Under the pieces are notes generated by a model. It was not told where the DNA came from. It searched no databases and saw only the letters and a list, made by a program, of their open reading frames with translations. A stretch of DNA of 64,000 nucleotides from a virus, in IMG/VR virus record IMGVR_UViG_3300046001_006396, positions 1 to 64,000 of that record, one strand, 5' to 3'. The position numbers and the translations under genes were made by a program. Shown here piece by piece: positions 4,986 to 24,036 of the stretch (positions are counted from its first letter, which is position 1; every line of letters begins with the position of its first letter).

Positions 4986-4986
4986 A

Positions 4987-8146: not shown

Positions 8147-9061
8147 TTATTTTCTTATAACATTATAGTTTTTTTCAAAATATTCAATAGTTTCTTTTAA
8201 TCCGTCATATAGTGGTGTAAATTTAAAATCGGGTAGATAATGTTTAATCTTACTATTATCACTTGGTTTTCTAAACTGTCCGTCAGGTTTTGAATTATTC
8301 CACTTGACTTCACCTTTAAAATTCATTAATTCAACAATAACATCTGTAATATCTTTTATTGAAATTTCTTCTGATGTTGATAATATTATTGGTTCGTTTT
8401 CATTATAGTTATCTAAAACCCATTCCGTTAGTTTCGCCACGTCTCTACTAAAAATAAATTCTCTTAATGGTTTACCTGTCCCCCATATTTCAAAATCGGT
8501 TTTATTTTCTCTTGCTAAGTAACATTTATGAATTAAAGAAGGTATTACGTGACCATTAACAATATCATAATTATCATTAGGTCCATAAATATTTGTTGGT
8601 ATGACCGATTTATAATTTAATCCATATTCTTCTTTATATGCTCGAATTTGAACGTCAGCCATCCTTTTTGCATATGCGTAAGCGTCGTTTGAAAAATGAG
8701 GAGGACCAAGATGTATTTTTGATTCTGTAAGTGGGTATTCTACGTCATTTGGAAAAATACATGTCGATAAAAACGATACTAAATTTTTTATTCCGTGTAC
8801 TCTGGCGGATTCAATAACATTTGTATTCATCATTATGTTATCATAAAAAAATTGACCTTTGTTATTCATATTACCCCCAAGACCACCAACTTTACCCGCA
8901 CAATGAATTATACTACTAAACTCAATAGTTTCTAATACCTTATCCACATCTTCTCGTATTCTTAGGTCCGATTCATTTGAGGATAGGGGTATAAAGTTAG
9001 GTTTACTAAACTCTGAACCAACAAGACCGTAACCTCCCGTAACTAGTATTTTATTTTCCAT
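8147..9061 (-). CDS. fcl: GDP-L-fucose synthase / GDP-colitose synthase (Fcl/WcaG/ColC family)
   Basis: LVTGGYGLVG, AGKVGG, STCIFP, YAYAKR, PTNIYGPNDN, HVIPSLI, WGTGKPLREF, PDGQFRK. Confidence 0.9.
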   Translation of the reverse strand: MENKILVTGGYGLVGSEFSKPNFIPLSSNESDLRIREDVDKVLETIEFSSIIHCAGKVGGLGGNMNNKGQFFYDNIMMNTNVIESARVHGIKNLVSFLSTCIFPNDVEYPLTESKIHLGPPHFSNDAYAYAKRMADVQIRAYKEEYGLNYKSVIPTNIYGPNDNYDIVNGHVIPSLIHKCYLARENKTDFEIWGTGKPLREFIFSRDVAKLTEWVLDNYNENEPIILSTSEEISIKDITDVIVELMNFKGEVKWNNSKPDGQFRKPSDNSKIKHYLPDFKFTPLYDGLKETIEYFEKNYNVIRK

Positions 9062-10028
9062 AATATTCTAACCAGTATTGAATCATTTCATCTAACATCG
9101 TTTCAAATGTGTACTTTGGTTTCCAATTTAATTCATTTGTAAGTTTAGACGAATCTCCTTTTAAATTTTCCAATTCTTCGGGTCTAAAATGTTTTTCATC
9201 AACAATAACATAATTTCTAAAATCTAAACCCAATTTAGAAAAAGTATATTCACATAGGTCTTTTACTGAATGAGATATCCCTGTTGCACACACATAATCA
9301 TCTGGTTTTTCTGACTGTAACATTAACCACATTGCTTCCACATAATCTTTTGCGTGACCCCAATCCCTTGTTGCGTCAAGGTTACCTAAATGTAAATTAT
9401 CCTGTAACCCTAAACTAATTCTAACCGCAGCTTTTACGACTTTATTAGTTACAAAGTTAGTTCCTCGTCTTGGAGATTCATGATTAAATAATATACCATT
9501 CCATATTTTCATTCCATATGAGTTCCTATAGTTTCTACAAATGTTATATGAAAATACTTTTGCACATCCGTATGGAGATACTGGACTCATAGGGGTGGTT
9601 TCTCTTTGGTACCCATCACTATCTATGTTATTACCAAACATTTCTGACGATGATGCTTGATATATTTTTGAATGCGGGGATACCATTCTAACAGCCTCCA
9701 ATAAATTTAATGTCCCCATCCCTGTTGCGTTTACTGTATATATTGGTTGGTCAAAGCTAACCCTTACGTGAGATTGTGCCGCTAAATTATATACTTCATC
9801 TGGTTGTGATTTTTGTAATACACTAATTAAAGACGCCATATCTGTAAGATCGGAATATTCTAATTTAACTTTATTACCTAATCTTAATTTTTCTATTCTA
9901 GATGATTGAGTTTCCGATACTGAATTTCTTTTAACCGTACCCCAAACTTCATACCCTTTATCAACCAAAAATTCTGCAAGATAAGAACCGTCTTGACCAT
10001 TTATTCCTGTTATAAGTGCCTTTTTCAT
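9051..10028 (-). CDS. gmd: GDP-mannose 4,6-dehydratase
   Basis: ALITGINGQDGSYLAE, YNLAAQSHV, YQASSSEMFG, SPYGCAK, FNHESPRRG, GNLDATRDWGHAKDY. Confidence 0.97.
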   Translation of the reverse strand: MKKALITGINGQDGSYLAEFLVDKGYEVWGTVKRNSVSETQSSRIEKLRLGNKVKLEYSDLTDMASLISVLQKSQPDEVYNLAAQSHVRVSFDQPIYTVNATGMGTLNLLEAVRMVSPHSKIYQASSSEMFGNNIDSDGYQRETTPMSPVSPYGCAKVFSYNICRNYRNSYGMKIWNGILFNHESPRRGTNFVTNKVVKAAVRISLGLQDNLHLGNLDATRDWGHAKDYVEAMWLMLQSEKPDDYVCATGISHSVKDLCEYTFSKLGLDFRNYVIVDEKHFRPEELENLKGDSSKLTNELNWKPKYTFETMLDEMIQYWLEYYGK

Positions 10029-11185
10029 ATATTGTTATTTACTATTTTTATTATTAAATCCAATTCATTATCAGTCATTTGGTGATTATTTGGTATGTAT
10101 AAACCGTACTCATGTACTAATTTAGCATTTTTAAAATCTTTTTTTTCATACCTCTCATACCAAAAAGGGTGTTCGTTAATTGAACCACATATTAAAGGTC
10201 TACATTCTATTCCATTTTTAATTAATTCTGAAGTTAAAGACTCAATATTTTTTGTTATTATAGGAAATGAAAAGTTTGAAACGTAAGACCCTTTTGGTTC
10301 GGATACCGACCAAAAATTATTTTTTATTTCTTTTTTATACTTTAAAAAATTTTTATTTCTATTTTTAACTATATCATCAATTTTTTTTAATTGGTTTAAT
10401 CCTAAAAATGCCTGTAAATCTGTTGATCTTAGATTAAATCCTGGATAATAAAATGTATATAATGCCCTAAAATCATTAACTTTATGTTTTTTTCTTAATT
10501 TTTTTTGTTTTTCTATCGGTAAATCCCTATCCCACCCATGAGACCTAATTGATAGTAATATATGATATAATTCTTCATTATTTGTAGATATCATCCCACC
10601 CTCAATAGTTGATATATGGTGACCAAAATAAAACGAAAACGTTGACAGGTCTCCAATAGTGCCCAACATTTTATCTTTATATTTTGAACCAATAGATTCA
10701 CATGTATCCTCAATTAATTTAATGTCGTTATCTTTACATAATTTTATAATTTCGTCCATATGATTTGGTATACCTAATACGTGAACTAAAATTATTGCCG
10801 ATGGGGATTCGTCTATTATTATTTTTTTTAAATGGTCTATGTCTAAACCTAAATTATCTTTATCACATTCACATAAAATAGGATTCAAACCTAATTGTAT
10901 TGCTGGTGTTACGGTTGTAACCCAAGAAACCGATGGTACTACAATTTTATTATTTTTTAATTTACCCGATAATATTAAAGAATATATTGCCGCTAAATTT
11001 GCAGATGAACCAGAATTAACAAAAACGGAATATTTAACACCTAACCACTTAGACCATTCTTCCTCAAACTTAACAGTTAAGGGTCCTTTAGTTAATTTAG
11101 GGTTAGTTGACAACCAACTTATTAGGTCGTCAATATCTTCTTTATCGATAGTGTCTTTAACTAAATTAATTGTTTTGTATGTCAT
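10025..11185 (-). CDS. colD: GDP-4-keto-6-deoxy-D-mannose 3-dehydratase (ColD-like PLP enzyme)
   Basis: DegT fold (VNSGSSAN, EDTCES) with His in place of the Schiff-base Lys: SFYFGHHISTIEGG; RSHGWDR, PGFNLR. Confidence 0.8.
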   Translation of the reverse strand: MTYKTINLVKDTIDKEDIDDLISWLSTNPKLTKGPLTVKFEEEWSKWLGVKYSVFVNSGSSANLAAIYSLILSGKLKNNKIVVPSVSWVTTVTPAIQLGLNPILCECDKDNLGLDIDHLKKIIIDESPSAIILVHVLGIPNHMDEIIKLCKDNDIKLIEDTCESIGSKYKDKMLGTIGDLSTFSFYFGHHISTIEGGMISTNNEELYHILLSIRSHGWDRDLPIEKQKKLRKKHKVNDFRALYTFYYPGFNLRSTDLQAFLGLNQLKKIDDIVKNRNKNFLKYKKEIKNNFWSVSEPKGSYVSNFSFPIITKNIESLTSELIKNGIECRPLICGSINEHPFWYERYEKKDFKNAKLVHEYGLYIPNNHQMTDNELDLIIKIVNNNI

Positions 11186-11939: not shown

Positions 11940-12280
11940 TTAAATCCTTTATAATATTTTACAGATTCTTCAATTAAAGATTTATTAGTTATAATTGAAT
12001 TATCTATCATATAATTTAATGCTTGAACTAATTTAGGTCTTTTAACTTTAAAGCATATATCAATCTTTCGTTTTAATTCTGAAACCTCATCATTAGATTT
12101 GGCTTCGGCAATTGAGTCTTCTAAATACCACATTCTACAATGTAGAATTGATAATTTTTCAATGACTTCCCCAATGTTGTCCGTTTCAATTAATTCAATA
12201 TTTTTATCTGAATTTTTATTTTCATTTAAAGTTCTGTGTACCACATTTTTTATAATATCTTCTATTTTTTCCCCTATCAT
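11936..12280 (-). CDS. DUF4254-like helical protein
   Basis: DNIGEVIEKLSILHCRMWYLED; likely start 12280 (ATGA overlap with upstream stop) rather than 12349. Confidence 0.5.
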   Translation of the reverse strand: MIGEKIEDIIKNVVHRTLNENKNSDKNIELIETDNIGEVIEKLSILHCRMWYLEDSIAEAKSNDEVSELKRKIDICFKVKRPKLVQALNYMIDNSIITNKSLIEESVKYYKGFK

Positions 12281-13155
12281 AATAATGCATTTTTTATGTT
12301 TGAATAGATTATGTCGTCTGAGTAATTTGGTGACCATATTACGTTGCATTTACAATTTTGATAAAATTTAGCAATATGTACATTATTACAAAAACAAACA
12401 AAAGTTTTATTTGTGTCTAATAAATTTTCTTTTACCTGTGAAAAACAATAGGGTCCCGATGCCCTACCAACTATAACATCACAAAATGTGGATATTAAAC
12501 TTATTTCTAATAAATCTGGAATTACATTGGTAATTTCAAAAGAATTTAAAATATTATTTTTTTTGAGGTTTGTGTTTTCGGTTGTTATAAATAATACGTT
12601 TTTTAATTCGTCACTGATTTTATCAATATAGGGAAAAAAATTAAAATTTGATGATTGGGATGACCTAACGTCACCATTAGAAATTAAAACTATTTTATTA
12701 AATTTTTGTTTACATTCTAACATTAACTTTTTTATATTTTCATAGTTTTCTAAATTTTGATATTGAACCGTAGGTAAATACTCCTCAACACTAAAAGTAT
12801 CTAGTTCAAATAGTTTTGATATTTCTTTTGATAACTCAACATAGTTTTCAAACGCACAACCAGGAAACGGATAATTTTGAAATGGTTCACCCCTACCCTC
12901 TATTGTTTGAGCTAACCAACAATTTATTGGAGTTGAATATAAATCGTCTGAAATAAAAATTTTATTTTTTTCCCAGTCGTACTCATTAGGTATTCCGCAG
13001 TTTTCATTAATATTTTTTATGTCTCTAAATAACCCATGCTTTTCTTTATGGTAAAAATTTAAATTAAATTTATTAAAAAAAGGTTTTAAAATAATTCTTG
13101 AAAAGAATACATCTCCATTATTAAAATAATTGTAAAAATTTAATTCATTATTCAT
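12277..13155 (-). CDS. Putative glycosyltransferase (GT-B, GT9-like C-terminus)
   Basis: N-terminal NGDVF and C-terminal CDVIVGRASGP resemble GT9 motifs; start re-assigned to 13155. Confidence 0.45.
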   Translation of the reverse strand: MNNELNFYNYFNNGDVFFSRIILKPFFNKFNLNFYHKEKHGLFRDIKNINENCGIPNEYDWEKNKIFISDDLYSTPINCWLAQTIEGRGEPFQNYPFPGCAFENYVELSKEISKLFELDTFSVEEYLPTVQYQNLENYENIKKLMLECKQKFNKIVLISNGDVRSSQSSNFNFFPYIDKISDELKNVLFITTENTNLKKNNILNSFEITNVIPDLLEISLISTFCDVIVGRASGPYCFSQVKENLLDTNKTFVCFCNNVHIAKFYQNCKCNVIWSPNYSDDIIYSNIKNALL

Positions 13156-13450
13156 TTTTAAAAAAAATTTTATCATTTATGCCTTTATCATCAATAAAAA
13201 TGTCAGCATTTAATTTAATGCCGACCCTCAACTGATTATACATAACTCCCCAGTCCTCTAATTGTTTTTTTGTTAAGTCAAACCAATCAATTTTTGTAGT
13301 TGATCCTCTTGCAGTATCAATTAAAATTATATTACCATCTTTAAAAAGTTTATTAACAATATTAATTCTTTCGTAAAATGGTTTTGCCCTTTCATAATCA
13401 CCGTTAGTGTTACTACAAAGAGTTCCGTCTAAATCAAAACAATATATCAT
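13148..13450 (-). CDS. Minimal HAD phosphatase (capsule-biosynthesis type)
   Basis: FDLDGTL, TARG, FIDDK. Confidence 0.85.
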   Translation of the reverse strand: MIYCFDLDGTLCSNTNGDYERAKPFYERINIVNKLFKDGNIILIDTARGSTTKIDWFDLTKKQLEDWGVMYNQLRVGIKLNADIFIDDKGINDKIFFKNE

Positions 13451-14270
13451 TTATTTTTCTTAATTTTTTAGCTATTGGTTTTTCAGTTTCAAAAACAACT
13501 TTAATTCCGTCACCCATAATTTTTTCCATTTTTCTAATTCCGGAAACTAATTCACTAACGTGGTCAATTGACGCTGCTTGGTCCGACCCATACATTGTTC
13601 TATCTTTTGTAATATGAAATTCAACACACTCAGAACCTAAAGCAACTGACCCATAACATGGTATTAATCCACTGGCGTGGTTAGAAAAACCTATTTTATA
13701 ATTTGGGTATTTTAGTTTAAGAGTTTTAATGTAATTTAAATTAATTTCCTCATCTTTGGTGGGGTATGTGCTTGTACAGGATAATACATATTCTACGTTA
13801 TTTAAAATATTTAATGCCGCGTCTATCTCTTCTTCTGTTGACATCCCTGTAGATACGATAACGGGTTTGCCTGTAGAATTAATTTTTTCTAAAAAGGATC
13901 TGTCTGTTAATAAAGCCGAAGCGATTTTTTGATACTTAACATTTAAATTATTTTCTATTAAATCAACACTTTTTTTATCCCAACAAGAAACAATGAAATC
14001 TATTTCTAATTCATTAGAATAGAATTCTAATTCTTTATACTGTTCAATTGTGAATTCTAACCCCTCTTTTTGTTCCCTATTTGTTGTTCCCCACGGTGAC
14101 TCTCTATGTGCTGACAGTTCTTCTTCACTATATACTGAATCAATATCTCTTTTTTGGAACTTAACTGCATCACACCCACTTTCTTTAGCAATTAACATTA
14201 ATTCTTTAGCCAAATTTAAATCACCATTGTGGTTAATTCCGATTTCAGCAATAACATAAGTTTTTTTCAT
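13434..14270 (-). CDS. neuB: NeuB-family ulosonic-acid synthase, short form lacking the C-terminal SAF/AFP domain
   Basis: IAEIGINHNGD, DAVKFQKR, STGMS, CTSTYPT, GFSNH, EFHIT, GSDQAAS; 278 aa. Confidence 0.9.
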   Translation of the reverse strand: MKKTYVIAEIGINHNGDLNLAKELMLIAKESGCDAVKFQKRDIDSVYSEEELSAHRESPWGTTNREQKEGLEFTIEQYKELEFYSNELEIDFIVSCWDKKSVDLIENNLNVKYQKIASALLTDRSFLEKINSTGKPVIVSTGMSTEEEIDAALNILNNVEYVLSCTSTYPTKDEEINLNYIKTLKLKYPNYKIGFSNHASGLIPCYGSVALGSECVEFHITKDRTMYGSDQAASIDHVSELVSGIRKMEKIMGDGIKVVFETEKPIAKKLRKINDILF

Positions 14271-14276
14271 AATTTT

Positions 14277-14855
14277 TTAATTTTTAAACATTTTATTTTC
14301 TACTATTTCAATTATTGTGTGACCAATAAAAGTGTGACATTCTTGTATTCTTGCGGTATCATTTGATGGTATAATTATACTAATGTCAGACATATTTTTA
14401 ATATCTCCCCCGTCATTACCCAAAAAAGAAATTATACCAACCCCTTTATTTTTAGCCCCTTCAACTGCTTTTATTATATTTTTTGATTTTCCTGATGTTG
14501 AAAATGATATTAATAAGTCTCCTTTTTTTGCGGATGATTTTACTTCTCTTGAAAATATTTCTTCATATGAATAGTCATTTGCAACTGCCGTTAAATACGA
14601 TACGTTTGACGAAAGTAAAACAATTTCTAATGGGTCCCTATCAAAATAGAATCTACCATTTAATTCTGCGGATAAATGTTGGGCATCAGCATAACTACCA
14701 CCATTCCCACAAAAATAAACTTTATTACCGTTTTTATAACATTCAATAATTTTTTGAGATATTAATAACATATCATTTAAAATATTATTGTCATTTAAAA
14801 TAAAACTTTTTAAATTTATAGATTCTATTAAGTTTTTTTTAATTAATTCTACCAT
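14277..14855 (-). CDS. gmhA: Phosphoheptose isomerase / SIS-domain sugar-phosphate isomerase
   Basis: CGNGGSYADAQH, AVANDY, STSGKSKN, TARIQECH. Confidence 0.9.
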   Translation of the reverse strand: MVELIKKNLIESINLKSFILNDNNILNDMLLISQKIIECYKNGNKVYFCGNGGSYADAQHLSAELNGRFYFDRDPLEIVLLSSNVSYLTAVANDYSYEEIFSREVKSSAKKGDLLISFSTSGKSKNIIKAVEGAKNKGVGIISFLGNDGGDIKNMSDISIIIPSNDTARIQECHTFIGHTIIEIVENKMFKN

Positions 14856-15667
14856 ATCGTTTTTCCCCCATCAATTACTATGTTTGATCCTGTCATATAT
14901 GTGCTAGCATCAGAACACATAAAAACAATCGCCCCTTTATATTCGTCAATATGAGCCATTCTACCCATAGGTATAATATTAGATAATTTATTAACAAAAT
15001 CAACAGGATGGTCATTATAAACCCCTGTTGGGCTTAATGAATTAACCCTAATATTATTTTTGGCAAAATATACCGACAAATATTTAGTCATACCAATTAT
15101 TGCCCATTTGGCCGCAGAATAGGTTATAGGTTTAACATTTTGTTCATTTTCTTTTTTAGTGTCGTCTCTATAGATTCTTTGGTCTGGAGCGATGACTCCC
15201 AAGTCAGAAGATATATTTAATACCACTCCACCACCTGTATTTAACATTTTATTACAAATAACTTGAGACGTTAAAAACGTACCATTTATTATTGCATCAA
15301 TACCCTCTTTAAAATACTCTTCAGTCATAACTTCAAAACGGGATTCTGGTGTTAGGGTTTTATTGTCTTTAGTTACTTTAGGATCTTTAGCCGCATTATT
15401 AATTAAAATATCAATCCTATCGTACTTATTTGATACAAGTTCTATGGATTTTTTATCGGTAACGTTCATATACTCCATAAAAACGTTTTCACCCCCAAAA
15501 GTTTCTGATAGGGTTAAATATTTTTCTTTAAGAGAAACTAAATCTAAATCGGTCAAAATTACTTTTGCGCCGTATTCTAATAAAGCCTCTGCGTGTTTTG
15601 GTCCAAGTAATCCTCCGGCACCTGTTATAAGTGCCGTCTTACCAGACATATTAAATAAATCTTTCAT
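14849..15667 (-). CDS. Short-chain dehydrogenase/reductase (PtmA-like)
   Basis: LITGAGGLLG, LINNAA, NISS, YSAAK, IRVNSLSP, IDGG. Confidence 0.9.
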   Translation of the reverse strand: MKDLFNMSGKTALITGAGGLLGPKHAEALLEYGAKVILTDLDLVSLKEKYLTLSETFGGENVFMEYMNVTDKKSIELVSNKYDRIDILINNAAKDPKVTKDNKTLTPESRFEVMTEEYFKEGIDAIINGTFLTSQVICNKMLNTGGGVVLNISSDLGVIAPDQRIYRDDTKKENEQNVKPITYSAAKWAIIGMTKYLSVYFAKNNIRVNSLSPTGVYNDHPVDFVNKLSNIIPMGRMAHIDEYKGAIVFMCSDASTYMTGSNIVIDGGKTIW

Positions 15668-15668
15668 A

Positions 15669-16445
15669 TTAAAATGTATAATTAATTTTTATTTTTTTGT
15701 ATGTTTCCTCTATATATTTTTTTTCATCACCCTCACTATCTCTACATAGTTGTAAAATAAAGTTATCACTATAATTGATTTTTTTAAGAGTTTTAAAAAT
15801 AGTCATAAAATCGGTATCCCCAAAACTAAATTTTTTACTTATTGAGTTGTAGGTTCTATCTTTTATGTGCACATTTTTTATTTTATCACCAAAAGATAGT
15901 ATTAAGTCTTCGTGATTTATTTTTTGTTTATAATGGGAAGTGAAGTTACCTGTATCATATGTAATAAAGAAATTACTTTTTTTTGACACAACATCTAAAA
16001 CAATTTCTTTATTAGACTCAAATTCAAAACAAAACTCAATAAATGAATATTTTTCCCCTATAGGTATTATGTTTTTTAAAAACTCTTCCCTAATTAGGGG
16101 GTCATCAACTGAACTGTCTTCTAATAATGGTATAACCACTTTATTGACATTTAATACACTCATTCTATCTAAAACTGGTATTAAATTTTTATTAATAAAA
16201 TCTTGATTATAAAAAGATTTATTAACCATAGTATCAACACAAACAGACATTATATTTTTTGGTAAAATAGCTTCAGTAAAAAATGGGTTATTTAAATTAC
16301 ATTCATTAGTTATTAACCACTCAATACCGTATAAACCAATATCGGAAATTAAATTAAATTCATCAACCCAAGTAATTAAAGGAAACTCCTGCATTTTTCC
16401 ATTAACTGATTTACTTAGTCTACCTTGTAATACTCCAATTTTCAT
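15669..16445 (-). CDS. Sugar-phosphate isomerase/epimerase (xylose isomerase-like TIM barrel)
   Basis: IGVLQGRLS, YDTGN, VHIKDR, GDTDF. Confidence 0.8.
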   Translation of the reverse strand: MKIGVLQGRLSKSVNGKMQEFPLITWVDEFNLISDIGLYGIEWLITNECNLNNPFFTEAILPKNIMSVCVDTMVNKSFYNQDFINKNLIPVLDRMSVLNVNKVVIPLLEDSSVDDPLIREEFLKNIIPIGEKYSFIEFCFEFESNKEIVLDVVSKKSNFFITYDTGNFTSHYKQKINHEDLILSFGDKIKNVHIKDRTYNSISKKFSFGDTDFMTIFKTLKKINYSDNFILQLCRDSEGDEKKYIEETYKKIKINYTF

Positions 16446-16855
16446 AATAACTCAACAAATTCTATAATATTATTTTCTGGGTCAATACCAAAAAAAACCC
16501 GAACTTTACTTTCTTCTGAGGTTATTGGTTTATTAATTACTGGCATATTATTATTAATAAATTTTTTGTACAACTCATCAACATTTTTTACTGTTATAGC
16601 AAAGTGAGTATATCCGTTTTGAAAAAGGGTTTTATTTTTTTTTATTTTTTTGTTAAAAAGTAATAACTCAACAATGGTTTTATTATCAAACCCTAATTTA
16701 ATAATTCTTGGGGATAGGTTTTTTGAATTAAGTATGTGATTTAAAAAATATCCTTTTTCCACCTCGTCGTACATAATTTCTAAACATAAAATATCACGAT
16801 AAAACCAAATCATCTTATCAATATTATTTACTACAATTCCTACGTGCCTAAACAT
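16442..16855 (-). CDS. VOC/glyoxalase-family protein
   Basis: RHVGIVV..FYRDIL, HFAITV, DPENNIIEFVE. Confidence 0.9.
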   Translation of the reverse strand: MFRHVGIVVNNIDKMIWFYRDILCLEIMYDEVEKGYFLNHILNSKNLSPRIIKLGFDNKTIVELLLFNKKIKKNKTLFQNGYTHFAITVKNVDELYKKFINNNMPVINKPITSEESKVRVFFGIDPENNIIEFVELL

Positions 16856-18168
16856 TCTTTTAAACTTTCTTTTAATACTCCAATACCTTCAATTAATGCA
16901 TCATCATCTATAGTAAGTGGAGGACCAATTTTTAATGTTCCCGATTGTGTTCTTATAGATAATAAACCTTTTCTCATTGCGACTTCAATTATTTTATCAA
17001 CAAATTCAACGTTATTACCATAAGGAGATTCAATAAATACCCCAGCCAATAACCCCTCACAGTTTATTTTTTTTACATATTTAGACATCTCAGATTTCCA
17101 ATTTAATAGTTCGTTTTTCATTATTAAACCCTTTCTTTGTGATTCATATATTAAGTTATTATCTATAAGATATTCAACAGAAGCCTTGGATGCCGCAACC
17201 GCAACTGGATTCCCACCATGGGTACTATTGTAAGACATATCGGTGTTAATAATATTACTATTGGTAATAACGCAAGATAAAGGTAAAGAAGATGAAATCC
17301 CCTTTGCACAAACAATAATGTCAGGGACAATTTCAAAATGTTCGTAAGCGAACAGTTTACCGGTCCTACCAAAACCTGATTGTATTTCATCCATTATTAA
17401 TAATACTCCGTTATCCGTACACCATTCACGTAAAAGTTTAACATATTCTTTTGATGCAAATTCTGCGGACCATCCTTGATATGGTTCCATTATTACTGCG
17501 GAATATTCACTTGGGTTTATATCATTAAAATATTTATAAAATAAATCTTTATATGATATATTTTGTTCTTGGATTGTTATTGAATCGGGATAGGGTAAAT
17601 GATTTACATATGTTTTTACTGGTATCCATTCTTGGGCTTTAAATTTTCCGCTAGCCATAGCTGAACCCATTGTTTTTCCGTGATATCCATTATTAAATGA
17701 AATAATTTTATTTTTACCTGTATATTTAATTGACATTTTTATTGCCGCCTCAACAGACTCCGATCCGGTTGATAAAAATAAAACTTTGTCAAGATTTTTA
17801 GGTGTAATATCCACAAGAAGCTTAGAAAATTCAGATCTTTCTTTTGTTGGGTAATAGTACGCATTTAATAGGTTTTTATTTGTAGTTGCAATTATTGCGT
17901 CTTTTATATTTGTATTACCATGACCAACATTTGTTACAAAAATGGAAGATGTAAAATCTATCCATTTATTACCTGATACGTCATATATAGAATAATTTTT
18001 TGCCGAATCCCAAACTATCGGTAGTTGGTCGTTCATCGAATCAGGTTCATTTTTTATACAATCCATCAAAACACCTATAGTTTCAGGAGATGGTATATCT
18101 GTTAAAATTACCCTATTTTTTGTTTTTATTTTTGGACAATTTACGGGGTTTATGGAAAACTTAAACAT
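16840..18168 (-). CDS. Class III PLP aminotransferase
   Basis: STGSESVE, GYHGKT, MEPYQG, DEIQSGFGRTG, AKGISS, STHGGNP. Confidence 0.92.
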   Translation of the reverse strand: MFKFSINPVNCPKIKTKNRVILTDIPSPETIGVLMDCIKNEPDSMNDQLPIVWDSAKNYSIYDVSGNKWIDFTSSIFVTNVGHGNTNIKDAIIATTNKNLLNAYYYPTKERSEFSKLLVDITPKNLDKVLFLSTGSESVEAAIKMSIKYTGKNKIISFNNGYHGKTMGSAMASGKFKAQEWIPVKTYVNHLPYPDSITIQEQNISYKDLFYKYFNDINPSEYSAVIMEPYQGWSAEFASKEYVKLLREWCTDNGVLLIMDEIQSGFGRTGKLFAYEHFEIVPDIIVCAKGISSSLPLSCVITNSNIINTDMSYNSTHGGNPVAVAASKASVEYLIDNNLIYESQRKGLIMKNELLNWKSEMSKYVKKINCEGLLAGVFIESPYGNNVEFVDKIIEVAMRKGLLSIRTQSGTLKIGPPLTIDDDALIEGIGVLKESLKECLGT

Positions 18169-18832
18169 TTTTTTTATATTTTATTATGTATTCAATATAA
18201 TCAAAATCATCCATTGTGTCAATTTCTGGAGTGGATTTAGTTTCAAAGGCAAAAATTTTATCTCCATAAAAACTGTCTTGATTCATAAAAATATTTGGAT
18301 TAACAATGTCAACATATCCATTTGGTATATATGTTTTAGGGTATGATTGTCTTGGTTTATTAGTATCTACACCATTCACTAATGGTTTCCATATATTGTC
18401 ATCTTTTATAAAGAATTTATATGCGGACTCAGACATTTGATGTGCAGATCTAAGACTTGTCACTGTATTAATATTTATGTTAAATATTTTTATAGCATCG
18501 TCAATTATATTTGGGTCTATTAAAGGTGTCGTAGCTCTCAAATGAACTATAGGTGATGTGTAATTTAATAAATTACAAAAATGTCTAAAAGAATCTACGT
18601 CTAAAGAATTATCTTGTGAAATCTCTAAAGGCCTATCAATAACAATAACGTCTAACTTTTTTAATACTTCTTTTATTTCTTCACAATCCGTTGATACGTA
18701 AATATTTTTTATTTTTTTAGATTTTTTTGCGGATTCAATTACATAACTTATTAAAGGTTTGTTGTTAAGAAGTTTTATGTTTTTTTTAGGTACACCTTTA
18801 CTACCCCCTCTAGCCAAAATTAATGCGTCCAT
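18161..18832 (-). CDS. neuA: CMP-ulosonic acid synthetase (NeuA/acylneuraminate cytidylyltransferase)
   Basis: ILARGGSKGVPKKNI, VSTD, RP, TTPL, RQ, NG, EIDT..DF; start re-assigned to MDALILARGG at 18832. Confidence 0.9.
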   Translation of the reverse strand: MDALILARGGSKGVPKKNIKLLNNKPLISYVIESAKKSKKIKNIYVSTDCEEIKEVLKKLDVIVIDRPLEISQDNSLDVDSFRHFCNLLNYTSPIVHLRATTPLIDPNIIDDAIKIFNININTVTSLRSAHQMSESAYKFFIKDDNIWKPLVNGVDTNKPRQSYPKTYIPNGYVDIVNPNIFMNQDSFYGDKIFAFETKSTPEIDTMDDFDYIEYIIKYKKNV

Positions 18833-18833
18833 A

Positions 18834-19634
18834 TTATTTAGTTGCAACAACAATAAATTCAGATTTATCATTAATAAATTTATTACCAAACCAGTCATTA
18901 TAAAATTTAATTTTTTTGAATCCGACTTTTAATAATAAATCCTTTATTGTTTTTTTTGTGTATAATTTTAAAACTATTTCACTAAAATCCGTCTTACTTA
19001 GGTCTTTAGAAATGTAAGTTTTTTTCCATTTTAAAAAATTATTATTTTTTTTATAATCACATTCCCACAAAGAATACCTCCAAGGGTCGTCCCCCCCAAA
19101 CTCTTCCCATATTTTTGTTGTTGTTTTAATGTTTTGGATTATTTTATTACATCCGTCAAGTTCTAAAACTATTTTTCCTCCATTTTTTAATGACTGATAT
19201 ATTAATTCTAAAATTTTAATTTCTGATTTATAATTAATGGGTTCTGCAAACTGAAATGCCAAATCAACTAAAAAGCATACATCAATATTTTTTATATCGT
19301 AATTTTTTAAATTTAAAAAATCGTCATTTATATTAATTACATTTTCCACCATTAAATCCTTTTTCCATTTCTGTGCAAAATTAAAACGACTTTCACTAAT
19401 CTCAATTCCGTAACCAATATTTAATAGATTATTATTTAATAAATTAAAAATTAATTTTGAATTGCCCGAACCAAGTTCTAAAAAATTAATATTATTTTTA
19501 TTATAAATTTTTTTAATAAAATTAATATGTTGGTCACAACCTTTTAATTTTTCTATGCGATACTTTATTTCCGATTGATAATCATCAAAAATTTCAAAAT
19601 TATCATACGCGATTAAATTTTTATGACTCGTCAT
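18834..19634 (-). CDS. Class I SAM-dependent methyltransferase
   Basis: FLELGSGNS, GIEIS, LKNGGKIVL. Confidence 0.85.
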   Translation of the reverse strand: MTSHKNLIAYDNFEIFDDYQSEIKYRIEKLKGCDQHINFIKKIYNKNNINFLELGSGNSKLIFNLLNNNLLNIGYGIEISESRFNFAQKWKKDLMVENVININDDFLNLKNYDIKNIDVCFLVDLAFQFAEPINYKSEIKILELIYQSLKNGGKIVLELDGCNKIIQNIKTTTKIWEEFGGDDPWRYSLWECDYKKNNNFLKWKKTYISKDLSKTDFSEIVLKLYTKKTIKDLLLKVGFKKIKFYNDWFGNKFINDKSEFIVVATK

Positions 19635-19635
19635 T

Positions 19636-20181
19636 TTAAATATAACAAATTAAACACCCATTATGATCCTGAATAATCTCAAATTTATAATTTTTATTTA
19701 TACTCAATATTAAATTTTTTATTGTGTCTAAATTAATATTATAACCTTTTGACCAACCAAAATCAGAAACAATCATCATAATATCATCAATAATAATTGT
19801 GTGTTCTTTTACTTGGTGATTTGATATTATATTTAGTTCTTTGATGATTGGGCACTCATTTTCTTTATCATATAAATGAGTTTCTATACCTTCATATTCT
19901 AAATCGTGGGCATCTAAAAAAATGGTTGATTTTTCATTAATTGTATCTAACACTTTAGGTAAAATGTCTGTTGATAGACCTTGCATTATTGTTACTTTAC
20001 CGGTATTAACTTCATTTTCAAATCTTTTCAGGTTTTCTGTAACAAATTTTTCATTTATATCAATTGCATATATCTTATCAAAACCTGATTGGATGGCTTT
20101 TGATATGCTTTCCCCATATAATATTCCTGTTTCTATATAACAAGAGGAGATGTAATTTTTTAAATCAAAAAGTATTGGCAT
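19636..20181 (-). CDS. Putative SAM-dependent (sugar O-)methyltransferase
   Basis: YIETGILYG, AIDI, GLS, FLDAH, IIIDD. Confidence 0.7.
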   Translation of the reverse strand: MPILFDLKNYISSCYIETGILYGESISKAIQSGFDKIYAIDINEKFVTENLKRFENEVNTGKVTIMQGLSTDILPKVLDTINEKSTIFLDAHDLEYEGIETHLYDKENECPIIKELNIISNHQVKEHTIIIDDIMMIVSDFGWSKGYNINLDTIKNLILSINKNYKFEIIQDHNGCLICYI

Positions 20182-20183
20182 AA

Positions 20184-21104
20184 TTAATTTTTTAAATATT
20201 GATATTCATAAGTTTTTTTATTATTAAAAAATCCTATGTTAGTGTTTGGAAATCTTCTACATACTGATTCTATTATTTCGTCAGTTAATGTTGTTAAATA
20301 ATTATACCCCCAAAGTTTATAAAATTGCATTTCAACATAATGTTGATTTTGTAATTCACTTGTGACTCTCATATTTCCTCTTATGGGGTGGTCGTAAAAT
20401 ACTTGAGGAACCCATACTGTCCACATATTATTAATTAAAGTTTTGAGGGACCAATGCTCATCTATTAATAATGTATAATTACCCCAATTAGGACAAAGCC
20501 CTATTTTTTCTAAATTAGTTGTTTTAATTAAATTAAAATGTGAAAATATGCCGGAAACTATACATGATCTACTTGGCATATCTAACAAGGATTCATCGTA
20601 TTTATCTGTAACATTATGTAATTCGTAAGTTTTAGGCCAATTAAATCTGTCTTGACAAAACATTTCTCTTGCCGACTGACATACAGGATTACCACCAAGT
20701 CTGTAATATGCGTCGGAAGTATATCCTATCCACCCAATTTCATCTTCTTTACCTTCAATTTCTGACATTGTAATATTAAAAAAATCAAAAGTGCGAACTA
20801 TTAAATCATCGTGAGAGGACAAAATATAATCAGTATGGTTTTTATATTTATTAAAAAAATTGTTAAAAGTATTTGCCCAAGAATCTTTTTTAACGTCAAT
20901 TTCTAAAATGTAATTATTTAAATTATTTTTTTCTGCAATTTTTTCTATCATTAATTTTCTGTCGTCAGTATCCGTACAAATATAAAATGCAAAATTAGTA
21001 TTAATGTTATTTTTTATTGAGACCATGGTATCTTGGATATTCTCAGGTATAACATTTATTCCGGCAGAATTTATAAAGCATATTACATTATATTTTTTTA
21101 TCAT
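20184..21104 (-). CDS. Putative GT-A glycosyltransferase
   Basis: DYILSSHDD DxD-like motif, KIGL..., HP; glycan-cluster context. Confidence 0.55.
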   Translation of the reverse strand: MIKKYNVICFINSAGINVIPENIQDTMVSIKNNINTNFAFYICTDTDDRKLMIEKIAEKNNLNNYILEIDVKKDSWANTFNNFFNKYKNHTDYILSSHDDLIVRTFDFFNITMSEIEGKEDEIGWIGYTSDAYYRLGGNPVCQSAREMFCQDRFNWPKTYELHNVTDKYDESLLDMPSRSCIVSGIFSHFNLIKTTNLEKIGLCPNWGNYTLLIDEHWSLKTLINNMWTVWVPQVFYDHPIRGNMRVTSELQNQHYVEMQFYKLWGYNYLTTLTDEIIESVCRRFPNTNIGFFNNKKTYEYQYLKN

Positions 21105-21826
21105 AAAGTATTAAGTGTTTTAATAATATTTTTTAATGGTGAGGTTTCACTCATATTATATACATTAACCCCTATTTTTTTAGCACTATTTACGATAATA
21201 TCAAAATCGTCTAATATAAAACTTAAATAAGGATTAAAACTGTCGTAATTCTGAGTCTTATCATCAACATAACCTAAAGAATAGTCTAAGTCAACACCAA
21301 AAAGGTATATATCTTTACACCCCATGATAATACTTAGTGCTAAAACGTGTAGAGCGACCGTTTCTCCTGTTCCGTATCTTTTATTGTACCCTGTATAGTC
21401 TTGTAATACTTCTTGTATTGTTTTTCTATTTGGTATTAAATTACTACATCCATTAGGGCATTCATTACATTTTTTACCATTAAAATGCCTTTGGTCATAA
21501 CCAACAAATGGGTACTTTAAATTAGATAAAACCCAATCTCTATGTGTTGGGTCGACAGAATCGGCATAGACTAATGTGGTATCTGGTAAACTATTTATGA
21601 TGTCTTTCATTTTTATTGTGGTATTCATAGAATTCGCAAAAACCCAATAATTGGGTTTTAAGTTAGTCATTGTGTGAAAATCACTACAGGTTACCACAAC
21701 ATTATTATTTTTATTTTCCTCAACAGTATTTAAATATTTTTTAAATGACGGACCCATAGCGCAAGCGTACGCGGTTTTACCAATATGTACATCAATTAAA
21801 TTTGTTATATCAACGTATTCACTCAT
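21101..21826 (-). CDS. Maf/DUF115-like (ulosonic-acid transferase-like) protein
   Basis: AMGPSF, PNYWV, TVA, MGCKDIYLFGVDLDY, VYNMS. Confidence 0.7.
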   Translation of the reverse strand: MSEYVDITNLIDVHIGKTAYACAMGPSFKKYLNTVEENKNNNVVVTCSDFHTMTNLKPNYWVFANSMNTTIKMKDIINSLPDTTLVYADSVDPTHRDWVLSNLKYPFVGYDQRHFNGKKCNECPNGCSNLIPNRKTIQEVLQDYTGYNKRYGTGETVALHVLALSIIMGCKDIYLFGVDLDYSLGYVDDKTQNYDSFNPYLSFILDDFDIIVNSAKKIGVNVYNMSETSPLKNIIKTLNTL

Positions 21827-22628
21827 AACGACTTACAATTTTTTCTATTTTATCACAGACTCTAGTATGTAAAAATAAAAATTCTTTACATTTATTAAAA
21901 TTTTCTTCTATTGACTCAACATTATTTTTATAAAACGAATCATCTAAATTATTACATATTTCAATAATATCGTTAATAGTATTTGCCGTTAATATTGTCT
22001 TCGTATTAAACCAATTATCAATATTTGGGCACCCCCAATATATTGGTATTGTTTTGGTGTATAGTGAGTCTATTAATTTTTCTGAGAAATATCCCTTTTC
22101 TTTACAATTTTCAATACATATATGAAATTGCGAATTAAATAGTGGTTCTTTTTTATCTGATATTTTTTTAAATTCTAAATTAGTATTATATGGGAAATTA
22201 GTACTATTAAAAAAATTTTTAGGTATTGTAATATTATTTTGATTTTCCCATAAAGAATGTCTTAATTTGTGACCTTCGGTCATAGATTTACCCCCAACTA
22301 AAAAAGAAACCTCAAATTTTTTTTCTTTTACGGATTCTGTGTCGGTTATCCAGCAAGAACCAAATTCAAACATCTCCGCATTTTCGCATTTGTCAAGAAT
22401 TTCTTGATTATGTGTTAAAATAACATCATATTTATTTTTATTTTCAATAATATGATTTTTAATATTTGTAATGCTTTGAGGCTCACAAATAAATGCTATG
22501 TTTATACCATTATTTAATGGGTTCATAATATTATCAACATAAAGGTTTACAGGTAAATTAAATTTTCTATCAACCCGTATCCAAGAACCATTTTGGTTTA
22601 AATCATATTTATTTATATTTTTATCCAT
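21819..22628 (-). CDS. GT10-family (alpha-1,3/4-fucosyltransferase-like) glycosyltransferase
   Basis: FHICIEN...YFSEKLID....TIPIYWG GT10 motif. Confidence 0.8.
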   Translation of the reverse strand: MDKNINKYDLNQNGSWIRVDRKFNLPVNLYVDNIMNPLNNGINIAFICEPQSITNIKNHIIENKNKYDVILTHNQEILDKCENAEMFEFGSCWITDTESVKEKKFEVSFLVGGKSMTEGHKLRHSLWENQNNITIPKNFFNSTNFPYNTNLEFKKISDKKEPLFNSQFHICIENCKEKGYFSEKLIDSLYTKTIPIYWGCPNIDNWFNTKTILTANTINDIIEICNNLDDSFYKNNVESIEENFNKCKEFLFLHTRVCDKIEKIVSRYE

Positions 22629-23398
22629 AATTCGCAGAACAAATCCTTTGTGTTTAAATGTTTATTTGACGGACCAAACCATTCTTTAGGGTAAACTACT
22701 TTTTTATTTTTATTTTTGTTTAACCAAGCCCCCCACCAACTAAATGAAGAATTGGCAATAATATTATCATCACATAATGACATTAAATACATGTCCTCAT
22801 AATCTTTGTTATTAGATATAAAAGTTTTATTTTTTATAAAATTAAAATTTTCAATGCACCAATTAATGTCATCGGAAAATATAAGATAATTTTTATCTTC
22901 GCCTATATATTTTACTGCGTTTTCATAATAAGATAATTGTAATGACGTGTGATAATTTTGTAAAGATAAATAATCACCTCTTCTTACGTGTATTGAACAT
23001 GTGTTTCCGTTAAGTTCTTTTTTGAATTTAATTTTTAATTTATTTTTTAACTCATCATTTAAATCAAAAATATCTAATATTTCTTTTCTATAGTCTTTAA
23101 AGTACTTATCACTTTGAAAATACCCTATAAGTTTTAAATTACCTCCTTGGTATGGTATTTCCTTGTACTCAAATAAGGGTTCATTATAAACCCAATAATC
23201 ATTTTCTAATTCTTTAAATTTTATTTTTTTAAAAAAATTATTAATATATGTTTTATATGAATTATGTCCTGTATGTATATCAACAATATCAAAAAATAAA
23301 TCTTTATTATACTTAATTGATAAGGCGTATGCTGCCGATATTTGAAATAGATAGTTACCTAAACCACCCATTAACTTTGATGAGAAGTAATTATTCAT
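22613..23398 (-). CDS. GT11-family alpha-1,2-fucosyl/colitosyltransferase
   Basis: GGLGNYLFQ, GYFQS, IHVRRGDY, FSDD, IIANSSFSWWGAWL. Confidence 0.93.
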   Translation of the reverse strand: MNNYFSSKLMGGLGNYLFQISAAYALSIKYNKDLFFDIVDIHTGHNSYKTYINNFFKKIKFKELENDYWVYNEPLFEYKEIPYQGGNLKLIGYFQSDKYFKDYRKEILDIFDLNDELKNKLKIKFKKELNGNTCSIHVRRGDYLSLQNYHTSLQLSYYENAVKYIGEDKNYLIFSDDINWCIENFNFIKNKTFISNNKDYEDMYLMSLCDDNIIANSSFSWWGAWLNKNKNKKVVYPKEWFGPSNKHLNTKDLFCELWIKI

Positions 23399-24035
23399 TT
23401 TTTATAAGTATTTTAGATGGTACACCTATATAGGTTTCTTCATAATCGTTTTTTATTGATTTAACAACCGCACTCTGTGCACCAAAAGTTTTATTACTAC
23501 CAACTATTAATCTGTCTCTAACTATACATCCAGTTCCAAATTCATTCATATTACCAATCAAACATTGTCCTGAAATATGTACACCTGGATTTGTTGTACA
23601 AAAATCACCAATAATTGTATCGTGACCAACGGTTGTGTTAAGATTTAAGGTTACATAATCACCAATTTTAACGTTTGTTGTGACAACACAACCAGGAGAA
23701 ATTATGCCCCCATAACCTAAACTATCCCTTTCAATTAAAACTATTGCCGATGGGTCTACAATAGTTTTTGAAGGTTGCAATCCAGATTTTAGAGCTTTGC
23801 CGACCAAGTATTTCTTAATTTTAGGATTTCCAACCGCAACAATAAAATTATATTTCTCTTTAAAAGTCCAATTTTTTTCAACAGGATAAGATTTATTATC
23901 TATAACTAACTCTTTTTGTCCATCATTTAAATCATTTACAAAAATGAAATTTTTAATGTTTGGGCTTGATCTTTTTATATAGAAAAAAAATTCTTTGGCT
24001 AGTCCAGCAGATCCTAAAATTATAATACCTTCCAT
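23391..24035 (-). CDS. Sugar N/O-acetyltransferase, NeuD/PglD/PerB family
   Basis: N-terminal Rossmann-like domain, AVGNP, hexapeptide repeats with GHD, GVPSK. Confidence 0.9.
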   Translation of the reverse strand: MEGIIILGSAGLAKEFFFYIKRSSPNIKNFIFVNDLNDGQKELVIDNKSYPVEKNWTFKEKYNFIVAVGNPKIKKYLVGKALKSGLQPSKTIVDPSAIVLIERDSLGYGGIISPGCVVTTNVKIGDYVTLNLNTTVGHDTIIGDFCTTNPGVHISGQCLIGNMNEFGTGCIVRDRLIVGSNKTFGAQSAVVKSIKNDYEETYIGVPSKILIKNE

Positions 24036-24036
24036 C

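Follow-up and report, generated by a model that had tools for sequence, protein, structure and literature searches.

A cassette of nine genes at 13148-19634 of a 64,000-nucleotide stretch of viral DNA most likely serves to make an unusual sialic-acid-like sugar with an amino modification from a sugar phosphate and to activate it, as far as homology and gene order can tell. The stretch, called the window throughout, is the first 64 kb of the 81,927-base IMG/VR virus record IMGVR_UViG_3300046001_006396 and is a fragment of a large, uncultured myovirus from lake-water metagenomes, not of a bacterial chromosome. We give a probability of about 60% to the reading that the cassette encodes a phage-borne, self-contained pathway that would follow a phospho-sugar route to a cytidine monophosphate (CMP)-activated, non-canonical 3-deoxy-2-ulosonic acid. 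What carries this reading is directly observed: the domain identities of the proteins, the synteny of their genes, the clade structure of the synthase, and its association with phosphatases. The nine genes are:

13148-13450, minus strand: mini-HAD phosphatase, 100 amino acids (aa), overlapping the NeuB stop by 17 nt
13434-14270, minus strand: short, SAF-less NeuB, 278 aa (PF03102, E 8e-62)
14277-14855, minus strand: GmhA-like SIS isomerase, 192 aa (TIGR00441, 185.7 bits)
14849-15667, minus strand: PtmA-related SDR, 272 aa (adh_short_C2, E 1.9e-34)
15669-16445, minus strand: xylose-isomerase-like TIM barrel, 258 aa (AP_endonuc_2, PF01261)
16442-16855, minus strand: VOC/glyoxalase-fold protein, 137 aa (PF00903, E 1.2e-9)
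16840-18168, minus strand: class III (omega-type) aminotransferase (AT3), 442 aa (PF00202 Aminotran_3, E 1.6e-84)
18161-18898, minus strand: NeuA-type CMP-transferase (CMPT), 245 aa (PF02348 CTP_transf_3)
18834-19634, minus strand: class I SAM methyltransferase, 266 aa (PF13847 Methyltransf_31)

All nine open reading frames (ORFs) named in a preliminary description of this DNA, made from the letters alone, exist at these positions, and they abut or overlap by a few bases. That description had also noted the lack of NeuC, PseB, and LegB/LegC entry enzymes in the block, and this holds: a search of all 81.9 kb of the record for a NeuC-type epimerase (PF02350) gave nothing, no Polysacc_synt_2-type PseB appears among the 43 window ORFs of 1-35271 scanned, and no LegB/LegC entry set lies in the block, the two DegT aminotransferases, Gmd, Fcl, and a NeuD-like acetyltransferase being confined to the flanks.

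The logic of the cassette is that of the known Kdo and Kdn pathways, but its parts are not members of curated equivalog families, beginning with the synthase. The window NeuB scores below the NCBIfam NeuB equivalog TIGR03569 (230.9 bits against a cut-off of 399.65), its match stopping at position 277 of the 329 in the profile, where the SAF domain would start and where Pfam finds none, and below the PseI equivalog TIGR03586 (160.1 bits against 340.25). In a quick IQ-TREE search with a midpoint root (69 sequences: 62 short NeuBs and seven SAF-bearing references; L037 and L118 were left out by a length and identity filter), a single branch (SH-aLRT 98) separates all 62 short NeuBs from the rest, and that of the window lies in a virus-only subclade of 12. 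The sister of the short clade (support 97), not within it, is a pair of NeuB+SAF synthases of 344-345 aa (L212 and L213) that adjoin Bacteroides-type KDN 9-phosphate (KDN-9-P) phosphatases; the tree contains no experimentally characterized synthase, and the label Kdn-type is used here with the neighboring KDN-9-P phosphatase equivalog as a proxy. Two synthases labeled PseI by PGAP, a NeuB in a LegI context (L227), and two other long NeuBs also lie outside the short clade. The phylogeny that the preliminary description had proposed as a check thus sets the short NeuB apart from the PseI, LegI, and NeuB references and makes it sister to the Kdn-type proxies; a grouping with an ordinary synthase, which that description had named as the finding that would tell against it, does not appear in the tree. 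The short NeuBs are an uncharacterized synthase family, distinct from all labeled reference classes.

This large family is hidden under the blanket label 'N-acetylneuraminate synthase': at least 8000 database proteins match the short NeuB at E<=1e-20, and PGAP labels the bacterial homologues only as 'N-acetylneuraminate synthase family protein'. Among 151 sampled Bacteroidota genomes, 51 carry a short NeuB at 43-50% identity, in a bimodal distribution in which the non-short matches are 28-40% identical and mostly lie in frames of 330-370 aa. Relatives are encoded by 233 IMG/VR viral contig stretches and by only three of 50,697 GenBank phage records, none from a cultured isolate, so the trait has not yet been met at the bench in phage biology.

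The partners of short NeuBs bear on the sugar-phosphate logic that the preliminary description had seen in the gene set. In the Kdo pathway, KdsD, KdsA, KdsC, and KdsB act as isomerase, phosphoenolpyruvate (PEP)-condensing synthase, HAD phosphatase, and CMP-transferase, respectively. Among 80 bacterial short-NeuB loci from many phyla (neighbors within 10 kb), 60 have a KdsC-like HAD, either free-standing or as a fusion with a CMP-transferase, and two a NeuC-like epimerase, which none of 80 viral loci has. Short NeuB therefore travels with KdsC/KDN-9-P-type phosphatases and not with NeuC, which supports the sugar-phosphate logic. When seven bacterial partner proteins were scored against HAD models, the six free HADs were best, or within 1 bit of best, on the KDN-9-P phosphatase equivalog, at 97-127 bits against a cut-off of 180, with the KdsC models close behind, and the HAD half of the one CMP-transferase fusion was best on KdsC. 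In 16 Bacteroidota short-type loci examined, a HAD lies directly beside NeuB in 13 and a bare HAD-NeuB pair is found in seven, and in six (L185-L187, L194, L195, and L198) the order is split transketolase-AT3-SDR-HAD-NeuB. The latter cassette, with a KdsC-type HAD and a short NeuB, recurs on a Methylomagnum ishizawai plasmid (L163), and we know of no characterized counterpart. HADs above the KDN-9-P phosphatase cut-off occur in only three of the 151 Bacteroidota genomes, in two of which (G015 and G020) the adjacent synthase is a 344-345-aa NeuB+SAF protein; elsewhere in these same two genomes lies a short NeuB paired with a lower-scoring HAD, an arrangement that speaks for different products of the two NeuB-HAD pairs.

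In the phage, we propose from its motifs and gene neighborhood that the mini-HAD is the ulosonate-phosphate phosphatase. Its translation has DLDGT at residues 6-10 (D6, D8, and T10), T46, K79, and DD at 87-88, which we take to be HAD motifs I-IV (DxDxT, S/T, K, and DD), the full set that defines the superfamily. It matches small-HAD NCBIfam models weakly (TIGR01689, E 2.8e-4, and the BT0820-family HAD), gives no match at E<=0.01 to the KdsC and KDN-9-P phosphatase models TIGR01670 and NF058599, and matches phrog_1238 at 4e-21. In all 39 viral loci that have a homologue, it lies downstream of NeuB on the same strand, directly adjacent in six, and it accompanies NeuB in 28 viral loci without SIS. 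The label of phrog_1238 is 'phosphoheptose isomerase' despite the HAD phosphatase motifs, and seems to be an error or to stem from phosphatases of heptose pathways.

The cassette is both conserved and modular. Its viral relatives were sought by tblastn with the window proteins (E<=1e-8, at least half the query length) in 81 loci, namely 80 kept of the 233 IMG/VR stretches and one marine single-cell virus record (L023 was left out of one alignment since its match contains a stop codon). NeuB is present in all 81, SDR in 48 (29 at 45% identity or more), CMPT in 43, mini-HAD in 39, VOC in 29, AT3 in 26, TIM in 22, SIS in 15, a Maf-like gene from beyond the block in 15, and the methyltransferase in six; many of the loci are truncated, so these per-gene counts are lower bounds. 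Six core genes (NeuB, CMPT, AT3, VOC, TIM, and SDR) occur together in 14 of the 81, seven of them distant (NeuB 47-67% identical), and the five distant loci that were mapped (L019, L021, L029, L059, and L062) have the order NeuB-CMPT-AT3-(methyltransferase)-VOC-TIM-SDR. Finding the same genes syntenic at 30-70% identity in other viral contigs is far beyond chance. In the bacterial set, the neighbors of the short NeuB include CMPT in 32 of the 80 loci, SDR in 30, SIS in 24, TIM in 17, AT3 in nine, and VOC in four, and the recurrent sub-modules are SIS-NeuB-HAD and SDR+TIM, the latter frequently joined by a further SDR or a GFO/IDH/MocA oxidoreductase. Metagenome-assembled genomes (MAGs) of Leptospirales, Elusimicrobiota, and Desulfobacteraceae carry NeuB-CMPT-AT3-VOC and then methyltransferases and radical-SAM genes, and a Mariprofundaceae MAG (L104) has the full set, SIS-HAD-NeuB-TIM-CMPT-AT3-VOC-MT-MT-SDR-SDR, with a KdsC-type HAD between SIS and NeuB.

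Some short-NeuB loci show further associations. In three bacterial MAGs (L087, L105, and L116) the order is NeuB-CMPT-AT3-VOC-methyltransferase(s)-radical SAM/SPASM-B12-binding radical SAM; C-methylation of the sugar by B12 radical-SAM methyltransferases is conceivable and would be another route to a longer backbone. On an Azospirillum thermophilum plasmid (L164), a full Leg-type set (LegB, LegC, NeuC, acetyltransferase, nucleotidyltransferase, CMP-transferase, and SDR) is divergently adjacent to a short NeuB and a CMP-transferase-HAD fusion, with an SDR-SDR-TIM-SDR set at a distance of 5 kb. Escherichia coli NZ_CP141089.1 encodes at 4284-5831 a 515-aa ORF with a NeuB domain at residues 258-500, no SAF domain, and an unassigned N-terminal half (L228), and akin matches occur on Enterobacter and E. 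coli plasmids.

Each tailoring enzyme has recognizable relatives. The best NCBIfam match of the SDR is PRK09186 (157.7 bits), and it reaches 97.1 bits against a cut-off of 350 on the model of PtmA, which has a role in the conversion of Fru-6-P to GlcN-6-P; its identity is 59-72% in loci whose NeuB reaches just 47-67%. By family, we propose that it oxidizes a sugar hydroxyl. The TIM barrel found nothing at E<=0.01 in a sequence search of the PDB and was studied through an 11-sequence alignment and an AlphaFold2 model (pLDDT 89.9). At the top of the Foldseek matches to this model are the L-ketose 3-epimerase TM0416 and the L-xylulose-5-phosphate 3-epimerase UlaE (TMq 0.73-0.79), D-psicose/tagatose 3-epimerases are also found, and the 3-keto-glucoside 4-epimerase YcjR stands at rank 33, so that the earlier designation as a TIM epimerase agrees with a ketose 3-epimerase fold. 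E141, D164, and H193 are conserved, as is Q232 at the fourth metal-site position (at least 90% of the 11 sequences); we take the canonical metal site of these barrels to be E-D-H-E with two catalytic Glu. The nearest solved proteins to AT3 are gamma-aminobutyrate (GABA), acetylornithine, and putrescine aminotransferases. Beside SDR+TIM, the aminotransferase slot is filled by a class III, a class IV (L108 and L154), or a DegT enzyme (L094 and L135) depending on lineage, and such interchangeable classes fit a keto intermediate. YcjR and the ketose 3-epimerases deprotonate next to a carbonyl, and the logic of YcjS/R/Q is to oxidize, epimerize, and reduce, which the SDR-TIM-SDR and GFO-TIM-SDR sets that occur in bacterial loci resemble. 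VOC always accompanies AT3, and the two are adjacent in L087, L104, L105, L116, and viral loci. A homologue of the window methyltransferase occurs in L104 as well as in the six viral loci, and L019 has a different methyltransferase between AT3 and VOC. CMPT scores 82.6 bits on PF02348 (cut-off 22.6) and 90.5 on the PseF model against an equivalog cut-off of 205.7, and its nearest solved relatives are the CMP-Neu5Ac synthetases 6ifd, 1qwj, and 1eyr (E 1e-20 to 1e-22), not KdsB.

A candidate transferase for the CMP-sugar, judged by its domain, lies just outside the block:

21101-21826, minus strand: MptE-like (Maf-type) domain protein, 241 aa (PF01973, 46 bits against a cut-off of 34.6)

Its homologue is directly upstream of NeuB in four of the five mapped distant viral loci (L019, L029, L059, and L062, not L021), a synteny that favors the earlier suggestion of a plausible transferase.

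The following route could account for these genes, with every substrate, the order of tailoring, and the acceptor read from homology and synteny. An aldose phosphate would be supplied, in this phage by its own GmhA-type isomerase, and the SAF-less NeuB would condense it with PEP to an ulosonate phosphate, from which the mini-HAD would remove the terminal phosphate to leave the free ulosonate. The SDR would then oxidize a hydroxyl to give a keto intermediate, and the TIM-barrel enzyme, perhaps with VOC, would epimerize or isomerize next to the new carbonyl, which the class III aminotransferase would turn into an amine. The methyltransferase would methylate, the NeuA-type enzyme would make the CMP-sugar, and the Maf-like protein or neighboring glycosyltransferases may transfer the sugar to a host or virion acceptor. 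In the Kdo8N branch of Shewanella, the dehydrogenase KdnB and the aminotransferase KdnA aminate the finished sugar acid; in a variant modeled on this branch, the SDR would act at the penultimate hydroxyl, the TIM enzyme, by virtue of a ketol-isomerase fold, would shift the carbonyl to the terminal carbon, and AT3 would create a terminal amine. Of the aminated, epimerized, and methylated non-canonical ulosonic acid put forward in the preliminary description, the sugar-phosphate logic, the NeuB clade, the TIM fold, and the Maf synteny are borne out, and the substrates and tailoring roles stand as proposals.

Several observations weigh against this route. The mini-HAD has only 100 aa and no Pfam match at E<=0.001, and no HAD lies within 10 kb in L087, L105, L116, L138, and L159, which belong to the same NeuB subclade. 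VOC has no assignable role, its only PDB matches being marginal ones to FosB (E 0.002-0.009). The NeuB tree is a quick, midpoint-rooted search with seven SAF-bearing references and no characterized KDN-9-P synthase. Finally, gene order does not fix reaction order, and tailoring could precede condensation.

The identity of the aldose phosphate bears on the length of the product. We regard heptose 7-phosphate and hexose 6-phosphate as equally good candidates, each short of an even chance, with some other aldose phosphate barely behind them. The preliminary description had speculated that the product might be a ten-carbon sugar: GmhA would make D-glycero-D-manno-heptose 7-phosphate, and NeuB would condense it with PEP to a 10-carbon 3-deoxy-dec-2-ulosonic acid, later dephosphorylated, aminated, methylated, and CMP-activated, a proposal that we consider possible but doubtful. 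The GmhA-like protein scores 185.7 bits on TIGR00441 against a cut-off of 209.45, a cut-off passed by only one of 14 control genomes. Its best PDB match, aligned end to end, is the Burkholderia pseudomallei GmhA 2xbl (E 1.2e-44), to which H60, E64, Q171, and H179, presumably the zinc/catalytic residues of GmhA, and the phosphate loop STSGKS are identical. In a tree of 38 rows, in which two non-cluster rows are on long branches and deep nodes are open, six non-cluster GmhA-like genes are interspersed among the cluster copies (six changes for six rows), which suggests that the cluster isomerases do not form a subfamily apart from housekeeping GmhAs. In seven of ten bacterial genomes with SIS in the NeuB cluster, the cluster copy is the only GmhA-like gene (E<=1e-20). 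Five of these seven were searched for the two HldE domains: three (two Chloroflexota and one from the candidate phyla radiation, CPR) have nothing above 58 bits for either domain, one has only a domain-II-like gene, and one has an HldE-like pair at 265 and 178 bits, both below the cut-offs, so that in this last genome the sole, cluster-borne GmhA should be a true heptose isomerase. A GmhA-like gene is present in all 51 short-NeuB Bacteroidota genomes and in 58 of the 100 others (Fisher p 6.6e-10, uncorrected for relatedness). Twenty Bacteroidota GmhA loci were fetched and 12 scanned (60 of 148 ORFs); the GmhA-like gene is directly beside lumazine synthase (ribH) in nine of the 12 (among L229-L246), and neither heptose-nucleotide genes nor any kinase or nucleotidyltransferase family turned up among the 60 ORFs. 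SIS-HAD-NeuB triads also occur in bacteria, and G015 and G020 retain a Kdn-type pair in addition to the short one.

Against a ten-carbon product, Caulobacter sp. Root1455 has a short NeuB, whose locus contains no HAD, but lacks GmhA (best 22.9 bits), an incomplete SAR11 single-cell genome likewise shows no GmhA, and just 15 of the 81 viral and 24 of the 80 bacterial loci have SIS nearby. A gene with a GT9 fold at 12277-13176 offers another use for a heptose and, taken with an RfaE-domain-II-like gene at 7699-8145, leaves a nucleotide-heptose use of GmhA plausible. The ten-carbon idea thus retains circumstantial genome evidence on GmhA and is opposed by short-NeuB genomes without GmhA and by the GT9-fold neighbor. 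If it were true, the product would be one carbon longer than Kdn, the short clade, which phages of marine and fresh waters share with about a third of the sampled Bacteroidota, would be a family of 'decaulosonate' synthases, and a heptose precursor would define a new class of sugars and link genes to higher-carbon ulosonic acids. The accessible part of a preprint reports CMP-activated C10 ulosonic acids with two N-acetyl groups and one O-acetyl group in Magnetospirillum gryphiswaldense, with no genes assigned there (10.64898/2026.04.20.719630), which indicates that CMP-linked alpha-keto acid sugars of more than nine carbons exist in nature.

An ordinary Kdn pathway is the first alternative to be weighed, and we consider it unlikely. 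NeuB would be a KDN-9-P synthase (Man-6-P + PEP), the mini-HAD a KDN-9-P phosphatase, NeuA a CMP-Kdn synthetase, and the GmhA-like protein a phosphomannose-type isomerase, with the remaining genes used to tailor Kdn or for other sugars. The Kdn pathway of Bacteroides thetaiotaomicron, present in Prymnesium parvum as well, resembles the proposed phage route in combining a NeuB-family synthase that acts on a sugar phosphate and PEP with a KdsC-type HAD and NeuA-type activation; that of B. thetaiotaomicron consists, in the accessible part of its description, of a KDN-9-P synthase, a KDN-9-P phosphatase, and a CMP-Kdn synthetase (PMC6200933), which the bare HAD-NeuB pairs of seven of the 16 Bacteroidota loci recall. 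The nearest SAF-bearing relatives of the short clade in the tree, the Kdn-type proxies, adjoin KDN-9-P phosphatase equivalogs, and the P. parvum CMP-Kdn synthetase is among the PDB matches of CMPT (E 4e-9). The bacterial HAD partners are best on the KDN-9-P phosphatase model at 97-127 bits, but this is below the 180-bit equivalog cut-off. The short family moreover stands apart as its own clade (SH-aLRT 98), both SAF-bearing and short NeuBs, each with its own HAD, are present in G015 and G020, and the cluster isomerases, interspersed with ordinary GmhAs, show no new subfamily. The phage set itself differs from a Kdn pathway: the synthases beside equivalog-level phosphatases have 344-345 aa and SAF, whereas the window NeuB, in its separate clade, has 278 aa and no SAF; a 100-aa mini-HAD takes the place of the ~165-aa KdsC type; and GmhA, SDR, TIM, VOC, aminotransferase, and methyltransferase are added.

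The cassette might instead combine two unrelated modules, which seems to us slightly less probable than ordinary Kdn synthesis. GmhA, the mini-HAD (as GmhB-like), the RfaE-domain-II-like protein (7699-8145), and the GT9-fold protein would supply and transfer an NDP-heptose, with NeuB and NeuA working alongside the flanking DegT and NeuD-like enzymes to turn a nucleotide-sugar precursor into a Leg/Pse-like nonulosonic acid. The GT9-fold gene is directly downstream of the HAD (Z 14-16), the CTP_transf_like gene scores 72 bits on rfaE_dom_II, the mini-HAD falls in a PHROG labeled 'phosphoheptose isomerase', and the glycan island holds two DegT genes and a NeuD/PglD-like acetyltransferase. However, neither a PfkB or GHMP heptose kinase nor a NeuC-type hydrolyzing epimerase was found in the 81.9-kb record, a fragment of the phage genome, and NeuC-like genes are in none of 80 viral loci. 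The mini-HAD stays with NeuB in the 28 viral loci without SIS, the GT9-like gene recurs in 0 of 81 loci and the CTP_transf_like gene in 3 of 81, so that neither is a conserved companion of the cassette, and the DegT beside Gmd, with Fcl and GT10/GT11, is presumably explained by GDP-fucose/GDP-perosamine-type chemistry. Less probable again is that SDR, TIM, VOC, and AT3 make an amino-sugar phosphate before condensation, the product being a neuraminic-acid-like 5-amino or internally aminated ulosonic acid reached with no nucleotide-sugar intermediates. PtmA-type SDRs stand at the front end of the Campylobacter jejuni legionaminic acid pathway in the accessible part of PMC4481668, the best fold matches of the TIM barrel, UlaE included, act on ketoses and ketose phosphates, and the split transketolase-AT3-SDR-HAD-NeuB cassettes of six of 16 Bacteroidota loci and the Methylomagnum plasmid suggest precursor building. 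Yet CMPT stands between NeuB and AT3-VOC in most viral and bacterial loci, the nearest class III enzymes act on terminal aldehydes and amines, and TIM co-occurs with SDR and not with the isomerase.

The preferred phospho-sugar route to a non-canonical ulosonic acid shares its step logic with the Kdo and Kdo8N pathways, dehydrogenase and aminotransferase included, but the phage synthase is of NeuB type and not KdsA, the isomerase of GmhA type and not KdsD, and the aminotransferase of class III; PDB searches gave no match to Kdo/Kdo8N enzymes. With the legionaminic acid cluster of Campylobacter, Plesiomonas, and Vibrio (PtmA, PtmF, LegF, and LegI), the phage has in common a PtmA-related SDR, a NeuB, and a CMP-transferase, and PtmF-like GFO/IDH/MocA genes occur in bacterial loci L088, L135, and L141; however, no LegB/LegC/LegG/LegH set lies in the phage block, the LegI-context NeuB L227 falls outside the short clade, and the phage SDR reaches only 97 of the 350 bits set for PtmA. 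PtmF had been considered as a SIS protein, which was ruled out by its entry as a 326-aa oxidoreductase in the Plesiomonas gene table (PMC4481668). The TIM barrel is alike to YcjR of YcjS/YcjR/YcjQ, UlaE, DPEase, and TM0416 in pairing a metal-dependent TIM fold with dehydrogenases, but sequence identity is 13-17%, and Gln stands instead of Glu at the fourth metal-site position. Among the papers listed in literature searches, none by title or abstract describes such a cassette or a phage-encoded nonulosonic pathway, and several spellings of a ten-carbon ulosonic acid or sugar found no paper; the text of PMC12619734 on large aquatic phages, supplements aside, nowhere uses the terms sialic, neuraminate, or heptose.

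Sialic-acid-like sugars cap the surfaces of cells and determine surface charge, phage adsorption, and recognition by the immune system. In phages, short NeuBs come along with dedicated enzymes for activation and tailoring and with a Maf-like transferase, and such phages probably decorate the infected cell or their own virions with an exotic, possibly zwitterionic, acidic sugar. The system is of interest mainly because the short NeuB clade is large and widespread, because phages carry it together with a transferase, and because a ten-carbon sugar is possible.

The cassette sits in a glycan island of ~26 kb, roughly 4167-30777 by Pfam, PHROGs, and NCBIfam, on the minus strand, which carries all genes from 1 to 33344. 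Besides three GT2 genes, its neighbors are:

7699-8145: RfaE-domain-II-like nucleotidyltransferase (CTP_transf_like; rfaE_dom_II, 72 bits), ~5 kb from the cassette
8147-9061: Fcl, in the flank outside the cassette block
9051-10028: Gmd, in the flank outside the cassette block
10025-11185: DegT aminotransferase in the flank, overlapping Gmd, which we take to be a perosamine-synthase-like arrangement
12277-13176, minus strand: GT-B glycosyltransferase-like protein with a GT9 (heptosyltransferase) fold, 299 aa, directly downstream of the mini-HAD
19636-20181: 181-aa ORF with no match in Pfam, NCBIfam, or PHROGs, minus strand
20184-21104, minus strand: 306-aa ORF, GT2-like by fold (ESM Atlas, query TM 0.66-0.78)
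21819-22628: GT10-like gene
22613-23398: GT11
23391-25191: NeuD/PglD-like acetyltransferase and second DegT, in the flank
26599-28236: GT2_5+GT4 fusion
29563-30777: phrog_7162 glycosyltransferase

The GT9-fold assignment comes from an AlphaFold2 model (pLDDT 93.5) with VIA Z-scores of 15.9 to 3tov, 14.3-14.6 to WaaC and WaaF, and 12.4-12.8 to TibC, the next tier of matches lying at or below 11.5. The protein has no Pfam or PHROG match, and its 63 database relatives are all unnamed or 'hypothetical protein', none with a Pfam domain.

Apart from the glycan genes, the window carries phage genes, among them a PolB-type exonuclease gene (Pfam scan) and the following, named by PHROGs unless noted:

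6959-7696: PhoH (Pfam scan)
28233-28835: dUTPase (Pfam scan)
35723-38623: family-B DNA polymerase
41218-42981: helicase
45075-48287: tail sheath
49477-49965: tail tube
50064-50813: baseplate hub
52972-58998, plus strand: ORF of 2008 aa downstream of the tail genes, no PHROG match
59307-63998, plus strand: ORF of more than 1564 aa downstream of the tail genes, running off the window, no PHROG match

The GC content of the window is 25-36%, and no tRNA genes were found in it. The best matches of the DNA polymerase among 50,697 GenBank phage records, from Salinibacter and Nostoc phages, reach just 24-26% identity, which points to an uncultured lineage, and the CheckV completeness of ~13% for the 81,927-base record hints at a very large phage genome. 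Between 54% and 100% of the region's sampled words are contained in 24 public sequencing runs, all labeled lake water metagenome, four of which may be the source itself and none of which is an RNA run. A marine origin, supposed from a cyanophage-like relative, does not agree with these labels.

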